The notes under the pieces were generated by a model. That model searched no databases. It had not been told where the DNA came from and worked only from the letters and a program-made list of their open reading frames with translations. Both the position numbers and the translations under genes were made by a program. A stretch of 64,000 bases of DNA from a phage: the NCBI GenBank assembly GCA_018296565.1, contig GCA_018296565.1_3935.1, one strand, 5' to 3'. Within the stretch, counting starts at the first letter, position 1. Every line of letters begins with the position of its first letter. Below are positions 7,037 through 49,314 of this stretch, in pieces.

Positions 7037-7333
7037 ATGAAATTATCAAATAAAGTTAGGGAAAATCTAAGCAAGTTACTCAACAAAATTGATTTTATCG
7101 AGACCTCAAGAAATACTCATGAGGTTATGGAATGGTTACACGGCAAAATAAAAGGCCGTCGTGTAGTGATTTGCTTATGGAATAGTTGCAGGGAGTATAA
7201 AAAGTCTGTATTGCAAATTAATGTTTATGATGATACTTGTAAAAGTCCTGTTAAGTCTGAAAGTGATTTACTAGATTCTTATGAGATAACTGTAAATGGC
7301 AAAGTGTCACGTAAAGAGGAAGCACTATGTTAA
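7037..7333 (+). CDS. hypothetical small protein (cassette gene, variant type A leader)
   Basis: Leader hairpin ggggttatc...gatagcccc with compensatory changes. Confidence 0.6.
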   Translation: MKLSNKVRENLSKLLNKIDFIETSRNTHEVMEWLHGKIKGRRVVICLWNSCREYKKSVLQINVYDDTCKSPVKSESDLLDSYEITVNGKVSRKEEALC

Positions 7334-7659
7334 TGATGGGTATCACTGCAATCATTGCTATTATGGCGCTATATAAGGCGTACAGCGCCTACAATCTGGC
7401 AAGTAAGGCAATCACGCAACAGGTCAATAATAGCCTTGTAATGAGTTTTCTGGAGCGTTTAAGTGATGAACAAATAAAACGGTTAGAAATGAGCTTCAGA
7501 TTTCAATCAAAAACTTATCAAATCAGCGACATTTTCAAAGATAATTTTCAGCTTGTCGATGATTATAACTCTCTGATAAATGCTTTAAATATCAGTGACT
7601 TAAAAGACTATTACACTGTAATTGTCCAAGAACTGAACAAACGAAAAAATTTCTCTTGA
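7327..7659 (+). CDS. hypothetical protein with N-terminal hydrophobic segment
   Basis: MLMMGITAIIAIMALY hydrophobic N-terminus; overlaps upstream stop. Confidence 0.5.
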   Translation: MLMMGITAIIAIMALYKAYSAYNLASKAITQQVNNSLVMSFLERLSDEQIKRLEMSFRFQSKTYQISDIFKDNFQLVDDYNSLINALNISDLKDYYTVIVQELNKRKNFS

Positions 7660-38201: not shown

Positions 38202-38775
38202 AAAAGGTCTAGTTAGAACCTTAGTGGATGTTATTGGTCACAGATTAGCTCGTGATAAAAATAATAGGCCAAACGTAATTAGAGCTTACCCTTCTGATAA
38301 CTCAAATGACAAAGGTTTAAAACCTGACCAGCCATTTATTACCGTATATTGTCAAGATGCTGCAACACCTTATGGTTGGGTTCTTGATAAATTTGTTGAA
38401 GATGATGTAGTTTGCTACAGAATTGCTTTTCAGATTCCTGTATTGATTACGGTAAATGGTAAGGGTGCTCACAGTATCATGCTTGAGCTTAAACAACGAT
38501 TAGAGATGAGTTCAGTCAGAGATTTAATCCTTGAAGAAACGGGGGCCACAGTACTAGATACTGGAGCAATCCCGAATGACTATACTTATCTCAATACAGA
38601 TTTCGAAAATTCTGCACCTCTTGTTGTAACTCTTGTAAAAAATTCAGTCCTGAAAGATGAACGTGGAAGTATTATTGAGCGTGTCATTGCTGATGGTGAG
38701 TTAGTTTACGAAGAAGGACAAGAGCCACCAGAATATACTATCCATCTAGATGTAGACTCCAAAGGGGTAAAATAA
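38176..38775 (+). CDS. tail completion/sheath terminator candidate
   Basis: Position immediately upstream of sheath gene. Confidence 0.35.
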   Translation: MQLETAELEKGLVRTLVDVIGHRLARDKNNRPNVIRAYPSDNSNDKGLKPDQPFITVYCQDAATPYGWVLDKFVEDDVVCYRIAFQIPVLITVNGKGAHSIMLELKQRLEMSSVRDLILEETGATVLDTGAIPNDYTYLNTDFENSAPLVVTLVKNSVLKDERGSIIERVIADGELVYEEGQEPPEYTIHLDVDSKGVK

Positions 38776-40128
38776 ATGTGGAATCCAATTGTTAATGTAG
38801 ATATTACATTGAACACCGCAGGAACTACAAGAGAAGGTTTTGGCTTGCCACTATTCTTAGCTTCAACAGACAACTTTGAAGAAAGAGTGCGTGGCTACAC
38901 TTCCTTAACTGAAGTTGCTGAAGATTTCGATGAAAACTCTGCTGCATATAAAGCTGCTAAACAACTTTGGAGTCAGACTCCTAAAGTAACTCAGCTTTAT
39001 ATTGGTAGACGTGCTATGCAGTACACTGTATCAATTCCTGATGCCGTTGCCGAAAGTACAGACTACTCAATTACTGTAGCTGCTGGCGGTGGAATTTCTC
39101 AACCATATCAGTATACAGCAGTGGAATCAGATACTGCTGAGAAAGTTTTGCAACAGTTTAAAACACAGATTGAAGCTGACCCAACAATCAAAGACAAGGT
39201 TTCTGTGAACGTAACTGGTAGTGGTGGTTCTGCCACAATGGTTATCACCAAAGCTGGTGACAATGACTTTGTAAAAGTAACAACCACAGCACAGACTGTA
39301 TATATTGCAAGTACAACTGCCGATACAGCATCAACCGCTCTAGCAGCTATTGAAGCTTATTCAACTGACTGGTATTTCATTGCAGCAGAAGATAGAACTC
39401 AACAGTTTGTCTTAGCAATGGCTTCTGAGATTCAAGCTCGTAAGAAAATCTTCTTTACAGCTAACTCAGATGTAACAGCACTACAGGGCACAGAATTGGC
39501 TAGTGCAAATGATGTTCCAGCACAGCTTGCTAAGAGCATGTACACTCGTACAGTTTGTTTGTGGCATCACACAGCAGCAGAAGACTATCCAGAAATGGCA
39601 TACATTGCTTATGGTGCTCCATATGATGCAGGGTCAATTGCTTGGGGTAATGCACAGCTCACTGGTGTAGCTGCTTCTCTACAACCAACTAATAAGAGAC
39701 CACTAACAAGTATTCAGAAATCTGCTTTAGATGCACGTCACTGTAACTTTATTGACCTTGATGGTGGTGTTCCAGTGGTTCGTAGAGGGATTACTTCTGG
39801 TGGGGAATGGATTGATATCATCCGTGGTGTTGACTGGTTAGAATCAGACCTGAAAACTGCTCTGAGAGACTTGCTAATTAACCAGAAGGGTGGTAAGATT
39901 ACTTATGATGATACTGGTATTACTCGTATTCGTCAAGTCATTGAAACCTCTCTGCAAAGAGCAGTCAACAGAAACTTCCTGTCATCTTACACAGTTAATG
40001 TTCCTAAAGCCTCTCAAGTTGCTTTGGCAGACAAGAAAGCTCGTATCCTGAAAGATATTACCTTCGCAGGTATCTTAGCAGGGGCTATCTTGGATGTTGA
40101 CTTGAAAGGTACAGTGGCTTACGAATAA
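38776..40128 (+). CDS. tail sheath protein
   Basis: 450 aa ORF followed by a 148 aa tube-sized ORF, the chaperone pair and tape measure. Confidence 0.5.
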   Translation: MWNPIVNVDITLNTAGTTREGFGLPLFLASTDNFEERVRGYTSLTEVAEDFDENSAAYKAAKQLWSQTPKVTQLYIGRRAMQYTVSIPDAVAESTDYSITVAAGGGISQPYQYTAVESDTAEKVLQQFKTQIEADPTIKDKVSVNVTGSGGSATMVITKAGDNDFVKVTTTAQTVYIASTTADTASTALAAIEAYSTDWYFIAAEDRTQQFVLAMASEIQARKKIFFTANSDVTALQGTELASANDVPAQLAKSMYTRTVCLWHHTAAEDYPEMAYIAYGAPYDAGSIAWGNAQLTGVAASLQPTNKRPLTSIQKSALDARHCNFIDLDGGVPVVRRGITSGGEWIDIIRGVDWLESDLKTALRDLLINQKGGKITYDDTGITRIRQVIETSLQRAVNRNFLSSYTVNVPKASQVALADKKARILKDITFAGILAGAILDVDLKGTVAYE

Positions 40129-40143
40129 TAGAGGTAAATTGGA

Positions 40144-40590
40144 ATGGCTATGTATCAGCAATATTCCCCTAAAGACGTTGTATGTAGCTGGAATGGTATT
40201 GCCATTGAAGGCTTTGCCCCAGACTCTTTCTTACGTCTACAGAGAACATCACCACTCGTGACACCAGTCGTTGGTGCAGGTGGTCAAGTTGCTCTGACAA
40301 GAAATGCAGACAAGACAGGTACTATTGAGATTGAGCTAATGCAGACTTCTCTCTCTAACCAGATGCTTTCTGCAATTCAAGCTAAACAAGACAATATGGA
40401 ACTTGAAGAAGATATCTCTTCTAACTTCGTAATCTACGACCCATCAGGCTCTGTTCTGGCAACTGGTATTAATGCTTGGTTGCAGGAATTACCACAGATT
40501 GAACTTGGTCGTGACCAGAACTCTAAAACTTGGATTTTTGGTTGTGAGAAGTTAGACTACACTTCTACAATTCCAGCGTCAAGTGTTTAA
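40144..40590 (+). CDS. tail tube protein
   Basis: Size and position; followed by strong terminator. Confidence 0.5.
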   Translation: MAMYQQYSPKDVVCSWNGIAIEGFAPDSFLRLQRTSPLVTPVVGAGGQVALTRNADKTGTIEIELMQTSLSNQMLSAIQAKQDNMELEEDISSNFVIYDPSGSVLATGINAWLQELPQIELGRDQNSKTWIFGCEKLDYTSTIPASSV

Positions 40591-40602
40591 TAAATCCTAT
40601 AA

Positions 40603-40634
40603 GGGGGAGACTTTAAAAGGTCTTCCCCTTTTTT
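40603..40634 (+). terminator. rho-independent terminator after tail tube gene
   Basis: gggggagac...gtcttcccc hairpin followed by TTTTTT. Confidence 0.65.
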
Positions 40635-40663
40635 GTTTCTTTTAAAAGTATTAAGGAATCACA

Positions 40664-41062
40664 ATGAAAACAGAATCTAGAGTAATTAATGGTAAGAAAG
40701 TAAATATCATTCTGCTTGGGGCAAGAGATGGTATTAAGATGTCTATGAAGTTGGGTAAGATTGTTGTCCCAACATTTGCACAGATGCTGTCAAGTCTGAC
40801 TGATAAAGATAAGAAAGAAGCTCCAATGGTTCCATTTAAAGAACTTGTTGAAGCTTGTTTTGACAGAATTGAAGAAATTAACCTAGAAGAAATGGCTACA
40901 TTACTATTTCAAGGGGCAACTGTTGATGACTTCCCACTTAATATTGATACGTACTTCCAAGCAAACTATGGTGAATTTATTGATTACTTAGCATTTGCTC
41001 TGGAGGCAAACTTCGGAAGTTTTTTCGAAGCAAGCATTTTCAAAAGCCTAACTTCTCAGTAA
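40664..41062 (+). CDS. tail assembly chaperone (G-like)
   Basis: Position between tube and tape measure; slippery heptamer near 3-prime end. Confidence 0.55.
   Translation: MKTESRVINGKKVNIILLGARDGIKMSMKLGKIVVPTFAQMLSSLTDKDKKEAPMVPFKELVEACFDRIEEINLEEMATLLFQGATVDDFPLNIDTYFQANYGEFIDYLAFALEANFGSFFEASIFKSLTSQ
41020..41026 (+). other. candidate -1 programmed ribosomal frameshift site (T_TTT_TTC)
   Basis: XXXYYYZ heptamer in frame of the 40664 ORF; -1 frame is open from here into the 41065 ORF. Confidence 0.5.
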
Positions 41063-41064
41063 AC

Positions 41065-41303
41065 ATGGGTAACACTCTACAGACACCACTAACTGATGCT
41101 GCTGTAGAGGCAACCTATGAAGAAGCAGACGAGATGAAATTTGTGCTTGCTATTTATGGTATGGAAGGGTGTAAAGAAACACTTGACCAACTCTTTGCTA
41201 TGACATTCTCTGATTTATTATCATTGAGACAATTTCTTGAAATTCAGAGGTCGTATAAAGAGGAAATTGCTTACAACGAACTTAGAAGAGCAGGAAAAAT
41301 GTA

Positions 41304-41304
<1 letters not shown>
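41065..41304 (+). CDS. tail assembly chaperone extension (T part of G-T fusion)
   Basis: ORF in -1 frame relative to the 40664 ORF with no stops between the slippery site and this ORF. Confidence 0.5.

Positions 41305-49314
<8,010 letters not shown>

Follow-up and report, generated by a model that had tools for sequence, protein, structure and literature searches.

Between the tail tube and tape measure genes of this phage lie two adjacent open reading frames, ORF1 and ORF2, and the locus raises the question of whether they are two separate genes or the two parts of one longer protein, made by ribosomes that slip into the -1 frame near the end of ORF1. Across region 38700-43600, the window (the whole 64,000-nucleotide stretch of phage DNA analysed here) shares 99.3% identity with Escherichia phage EcoM2 and about 96% with more than 160 further Felixounavirus genomes, which places it in this genus. 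As set out below, the pair very probably undergoes programmed -1 ribosomal frameshifting of the kind known from phage tail assembly chaperones. The features of the region are collected in Table 1.

Table 1. Features of the tail module around the putative frameshift site, with positions in the window.
Feature	Coordinates	Strand	Evidence or remark
Tail sheath gene, 450 aa	38776..40128	+	phrog_205 'tail sheath', E 1.4e-124; Pfam PF11863
Tail tube gene, 148 aa	40144..40590	+	PDB 9mt4_P 'Tube protein', E 2.9e-96; Pfam PF11681
Terminator-like hairpin and T-run in the tube/chaperone gap	40601..40640	+	13-bp stem with 6 GC pairs, then TTTTGTTTCT
Short chaperone ORF1 (G-like, 132 aa, frame-0 product)	40664..41062	+	Pfam Phage_TAC_15; phrog_1613, E 7.1e-49
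Overlap open in the -1 frame within ORF1	40984..41062	+	Preceding -1 stop at 40981-40983
Internal SD-like GGAGG, candidate 5' stimulator	41002..41006	+	13 nt 5' of the heptamer; anti-SD duplex -9.3 kcal/mol
Slippery heptamer T_TTT_TTC	41020..41026	+	Ser119 AGT, Phe120 TTT, Phe121 TTC; read directly
T-like segment, -1 frame, 92 codons and TAA	41026..41304	+	phrog_4963 'tail assembly chaperone', E 2.8e-55
ATG that gives ORF2 the look of a gene of its own	41065..41067	+	Probably not the real start
Tape measure gene, 740 aa	41304..43526	+	phrog_4036, E 0; Pfam TMP_3, 2.2e-17

The genes follow one another in the order sheath, tube, chaperone, -1 extension, and tape measure, and the phage has a contractile tail of the Felix O1-like kind. 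The counterpart of the sheath gene is labelled 'tail sheath' in the EcoM2 record, while the tube protein is essentially identical to 9mt4_P, with a match that covers all 148 residues. ORF1 starts behind a Shine-Dalgarno (SD) sequence with a duplex energy of -6.1 kcal/mol. Its product matches Pfam PF21822 (Phage_TAC_15) over residues 9-124 with 70.9 bits (1.9e-19), exceeding the curated gathering cut-off of 22, and the same family is also found in ORF1 homologues. At the other end of the pair, the TAA that closes the -1 segment overlaps with the tape measure ATG. The ordered matches to sheath, tube, chaperone, and tape measure bear out the initial annotation, which had identified a tail module at this place.

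A PDB sequence search with the 213-aa fusion returned no significant match, and neither did Foldseek against the PDB with a model of the G-like domain (pLDDT 77.6); thus, no structural link to a solved chaperone can be drawn. In BFVD, the best structural match to this predicted G-domain fold is the 212-aa fusion of Citrobacter phage Moogle (A0A0A0RQ75, E 5.9e-13). The terminator-like hairpin in the gap between the tube and chaperone genes has a homologous site in Salmonella phage Meda, which carries a 'terminator' annotation there. This element may lower chaperone and tape measure expression compared with that of sheath and tube. When 40500-41500 was compared with Rfam at a permissive threshold, two sub-threshold sRNA matches near the terminator were obtained and nothing else.

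Geometry, coding potential, and conservation of the locus can be observed directly. The ORF1 codons begin at 41021 (TTT) and 41024 (TTC), and TTTTTTC thus fits the pattern X_XXY_YYZ, with the ORF1 stop (TAA, 41060-41062) 40 nt from the first T of the heptamer. From 40984 onward, the -1 frame contains no stop until the TAA at 41302-41304, and ORF2 (41065-41304, 79 aa) lies in the -1 frame relative to ORF1. Both codon positions and distance agree with the initial annotation, which had described an in-frame T_TTT_TTC about 40 nt before the end of the 40664-41062 ORF and a stop-free -1 passage into the 41065-41304 ORF. Its estimate of about 205 aa for the fusion, in contrast, has to be revised, as translation gives 213 aa, composed of 121 residues in frame 0 and 92 in frame -1.

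Among the 15,430 codons of the 67 putative genes of the window, T_TTT_TTC occurs in frame only once, at 41020-41026. In-frame X_XXY_YYZ heptamers of any kind number 66 across these genes, and about 0.11 would be expected in the 26-codon overlap. In near-identical relatives (e.g. L001), the heptamer is the sole X_XXY_YYZ of the overlap.

Other potential slip sites are present in the window. A second possible -1 site in the same overlap, the tetramer U_UUC (ATT TTC, 41038-41041), would lead into the identical -1 frame. It is embedded in GCATTTTCAAAA, which is kept in most of the Ounavirinae examined but not in Pectobacterium phage Wc4-1, and this could merely reflect coding in two frames. In two other ORFs, A_AAT_TTC lies in frame 12 nt before the stop of the ORF at 7327-7659 (+), and C_CCA_AAG lies in frame 9 nt before the stop of the ORF at 18779-19243 (-). 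The most efficient slippery heptamer of E. coli, A_AAA_AAG, is found in frame within the tape measure gene (41591-41597). It was rejected as a second site, since the -1 frame stops there after five codons and since it is kept within Felixounavirus only, Mooglevirus spelling the same Lys-Lys as AAG AAA; it is probably incidental.

None of the frameshift-type relatives examined departs from the heptamer. It is found in 31 of 31 Ounavirinae contigs from IMG/VR and is also kept in Mooglevirus, Kolesnikvirus, Citrobacter phage Maleficent, the Erwinia phages Pistou and M7, Hafnia phage Zyzzx, and Pectobacterium phage Wc4-1. Further, it is retained in 12 distant contigs with 28-50% protein identity and in two metagenomic relatives found by protein search. 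Lack of conservation in related phages, which the initial annotation had named, together with an undetectable fusion peptide, as the observation that would speak against a frameshift, was looked for, and the heptamer proved invariant even in relatives with as little as 28% protein identity.

For many of the distant contigs, retrieval relied on the peptide pattern NF[GS]SFFE. Because this pattern covers the slip site, the sample is biased toward Ser-Phe-Phe, not toward its codons. With the codon usage of the tail module, the probability of NNT TTT TTC given Ser-Phe-Phe is 0.14 per lineage. In two lineages, TCT replaces the serine codon AGT, and the T in its third position is always kept. A within-gene codon control on eight diverse Ounavirinae chaperone genes is free of this retrieval bias. 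Here, 29 columns are invariant in the residue and six of these also in the codon; four of the six are S119, F120, F121, and A123. Phe82, Phe98, Phe111, and Phe117 are likewise invariant as residues in the eight genes, with codons alternating between TTT and TTC. By BLASTN, positions 41009-41049 alone are detectable in some Erwinia phages (92.7% identity), and other Erwinia phages give longer matches at about 66% identity. Scanning genome contigs with the N-terminal part gave no match; a search for relatives of the T-like domain that was independent of the slip site, run with a narrower alignment, returned the same Ounavirinae contigs only, and a protein search with the T-like segment yielded six matches only.

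A chaperone pair free of the frameshift is found in Buttiauxella noackiae (L085, 3001-3986; JPRU01000001.1, 1022942-1029322, reversed). The locus is chromosomal, lying within a 1.88-Mb bacterial contig, and a Pfam search upstream of the pair gave no sheath or tube match. The short chaperone (126 aa) belongs to TAC_15 and is 47% identical to ORF1. Its Ser-Phe-Phe is spelled TCA TTC TTC, which is not slippery, and no -1 extension follows. The next gene, joined to the 126-aa gene by a TAATG overlap, is read in a single frame and specifies a separate protein of 201 aa. Its alignment with the predicted 213-aa fusion is continuous over residues 81-208 of the fusion, across the junction at 121/122 (E 6e-13, 30% identity). 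In the sequences compared, a gene of its own for the long form goes together with loss of the slippery codons, and they are frozen where no such gene exists. This contrast provides the strongest computational support available for the fusion as the functional product and for a heptamer kept for slippage.

U_UU.U_UU.C falls in the efficient H_HH.U_UU.Y class, which gives more than 0.1% frameshifting in E. coli without stimulators (PMC4066793). Stimulated -1 sites are characterized by a stable, conserved RNA structure that starts 5-9 nt 3' of the heptamer, and the initial annotation had proposed a search for such a downstream element; folding, a consensus of eight relatives, and Rfam gave none. 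Folding of 41027-41070 resulted in an MFE of -2.5 kcal/mol (z +1.1) with no stable structure adjoining the heptamer, and the longer segments 41027-41090 and 41027-41120 contained nothing next to it. The consensus fold downstream of the heptamer in the eight relatives reached -0.61 kcal/mol, with no conserved structure, and Rfam contained no match for a structure in this position. A hairpin at 41064-41119 (z -2.7) was rejected as a stimulator because it starts 38 nt downstream, which is too far, and is not conserved.

Upstream of the heptamer, GGAGG falls inside the range of 6-17 nt that was searched for stimulators of the dnaX type. Within the tail-module genes (12.1 kb), this pentamer occurs only twice in total. 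Of 18 diverse relatives, 12 carry GGAGG or AAGGAG; the Erwinia and Hafnia phages have neither. A role of GGAGG as dnaX-like stimulator in this phage is plausible at most. The same stretch can form a hairpin (40999-41017, UCUGGAG/CUUCGGA; -8.1 kcal/mol, z -2.9) immediately 5' of the T6 run, with GGAGG contained in its 5' arm; hairpin and T-run together (40999-41026) were flagged as terminator-like in the scan. In relatives, the hairpin is weak or absent (-1.5 to -4.9 kcal/mol), and the consensus amounts to -0.8 kcal/mol with almost no covariation. As it is stable here but not conserved, the hairpin was rejected as a defining element of the site.

The pair could nevertheless represent two separate genes, with ORF2 translated from its own ATG, for example by reinitiation after the stop at 41060-41062, and the heptamer without function. 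Two separate chaperone genes are listed in EcoM2, the nearest record (99.3%), and in most GenBank records of the genus, and the ATG is located 2 nt past the ORF1 stop, at a distance that would allow termination-reinitiation. However, this ATG has no Shine-Dalgarno sequence: its anti-SD duplex is calculated at +0.7 kcal/mol, compared with -5.1 to -12.6 kcal/mol for 15 neighbouring genes. In a close relative, the Felixounavirus contig IMGVR_UViG_3300045988_004167 (L023/L073), ATA stands in its place, with heptamer and -1 frame intact. Erwinia and Pectobacterium phages have no start codon at the homologous position, and their records leave the -1 segment unannotated though it is open. In the Erwinia phages, the first start codon of the segment lies in mid-domain, and the segment is conserved regardless, still open and homologous. 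Moreover, the -1-frame products of 11 divergent relatives have a recognisable motif in common with that of the window (...IY....CKE.L..L..M.F.DL..L..). On these comparisons, the downstream segment probably lacks translation start signals of its own, and the ORF2 ATG is probably not a real start. Two separate genes would also leave unexplained why AGT TTT TTC is invariant at the codon level and why the heptamer is lost exactly where a separate long-form gene exists, and we regard this arrangement as highly improbable.

Could the T-run near the end of ORF1 be a chance product of an AT-rich genome, or act on the RNA polymerase rather than the ribosome? The window has a G+C content of 39% and contains TTTTTTC 13 times over both strands, but the copy at 41020-41026 is the only one of the 13 that lies in frame inside a gene, and lineages sharing less than 50% protein identity have the heptamer unchanged. 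For comparison, the in-frame A_AAA_AAG of the tape measure gene disappears outside the genus. Because the heptamer is conserved, chance is excluded for all practical purposes. Transcriptional slippage, in which RNA polymerase would add one U while copying T6 so that some mRNAs encode the 213-aa fusion by ordinary translation, would result in the same protein, as AGU UUU UUU CGA also reads S F F R. The terminator-like hairpin and T-run at 40999-41026, stable in this phage, would fit such an event. Hairpin-stimulated transcriptional slippage is described as a known phenomenon in PMC5009743, where a stem loop promotes the forward realignment of the RNA at its 3' end. If forward realignment is taken to mean a deletion, it speaks against slippage by the polymerase, since a one-base deletion here would end the frame at 41048-50. 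Typical sites of transcriptional slippage have a homopolymer of 8-9 or more residues or a conserved 5' hairpin adjoining the run, neither of which is found at this locus. Six T are short for efficient polymerase slippage, and the run is exactly six T, never longer, in all relatives, in which the adjoining hairpin is weak or missing. In addition, the frame of T_TTT_TTC is strictly kept, as ribosomal slippage needs. Slippage of the polymerase is thus very unlikely.

In the favored reading, a programmed -1 ribosomal frameshift, most ribosomes would translate 40664-41062 and terminate at 41060, giving rise to the 132-aa chaperone. A minority would slip while UUU (41021-23) in the P site and UUC (41024-26) in the A site are both occupied by tRNA-Phe, and each tRNA would then re-pair with UUU one base further upstream. 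CGA (41026-28) would be read next, and translation would proceed over 92 codons to the TAA at 41302-04. The long product would thus comprise 213 aa, its first 121 residues being common to the short form. By analogy with lambda G/GT and P2 E/E+E', the common part would bind the tape measure protein, while the extension would recruit the tube protein, and the single start codon would set a fixed short:long ratio for tail assembly. We infer the slip itself, its efficiency, and the functions of the two proteins; a search of the literature for experiments that detect the long product in Felix O1-like phages returned genome announcements only.

The initial annotation had compared the pair to the G/G-T architecture. 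The tube and tape measure flanks, Phage_TAC_15, and phrog_4963 agree with this comparison, but owing to the contractile tail, P2 E/E+E', not lambda G/GT, comes closest among the tested systems. Like this phage, P2 has a contractile tail and two overlapping ORFs between its tube and tape measure genes. Both shift by -1 on six T, with TTTTTTG in P2 and TTTTTTC, ending in C instead of G, here. P2 slips without a downstream stimulatory structure (PMC3091744), and none is found in the window either. The products differ in size, with 132 and 213 aa here compared with 91 and 142 aa in P2. The chaperones here belong to Pfam Phage_TAC_15, and their likeness to P2 E is drawn from the arrangement of the genes. 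The P2 frameshift is experimentally verified, whereas that of the Felix O1-like group is predicted from sequence. The work on E and E+E', summarised in PMC3091744, is reportedly that of Christie et al. (2002) and of Xu, Hendrix & Duda (2004).

Lambda G/GT shares with the window a single start for a short and a long chaperone and a gene position immediately upstream of the tape measure gene. In contrast, lambda slips on G_GGA_AAG and is a non-contractile siphovirus, while the window combines T_TTT_TTC with a contractile tail. Neither a PDB sequence search nor Foldseek detected similarity of the window chaperone to lambda G/GT in sequence or solved structure. The lambda system is said to have been worked out by Levin et al. 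(1993) and by Xu et al. (2004, 2013, 2014). As reviewed in PMC5009743, lambda undergoes a low-level -1 slip shortly before the short ORF ends, with the tape measure protein bound by the common part and the tube protein by the extension; the same division is presumed here by analogy. With E. coli dnaX, the window has in common an SD-like element upstream of the heptamer, namely the GGAGG at 13 nt (-9.3 kcal/mol). In dnaX, the heptamer is A_AAA_AAG, a downstream hairpin follows, and the shifted product is the shorter one. The SD-like element of the window is missing in the Erwinia and Hafnia relatives.

Several records already contain the frameshift. In Salmonella phage Meda, a Felixounavirus, Meda_064 is a joined CDS named 'Tape measure chaperone frameshift product' with a span of 641 nt, which corresponds to 213 aa, and Citrobacter phage Maleficent has a joined CDS as well (CPT_Maleficent_069). 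The genome announcements of Citrobacter phage Moogle (PMC4319497) and of Mijalis (PMC5543628) mention a tape measure chaperone with a translational frameshift, and the 212-aa Moogle fusion A0A0A0RQ75 is present in UniProt. Meda, Maleficent, and Moogle possess the same gene pair and heptamer as the window, with no difference of substance. The evidence thus supports a frameshift that is ordinary, already annotated, and strongly conserved, and not new.

For this phage, the finding confirms the tail module and fixes the annotation of the 213-aa product; beyond annotation, it adds nothing new on frameshifting. As in Meda, the 79-aa 'gene' at 41065-41304 should rather be annotated as the 3' portion of the 213-aa frameshift product. 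One mildly useful by-product is the Buttiauxella locus, which supports selection for slippage as the keeper of the heptamer. It is conceivable, though we consider it unlikely, that GGAGG tunes the frameshift efficiency of this lineage, as in dnaX, instead of a downstream structure; Buttiauxella would then show that the frameshift is replaceable by gene duplication. If this were true, the Buttiauxella locus with its short and long genes would form a natural pair with which to ask why the frameshift persists in nearly all tailed phages.
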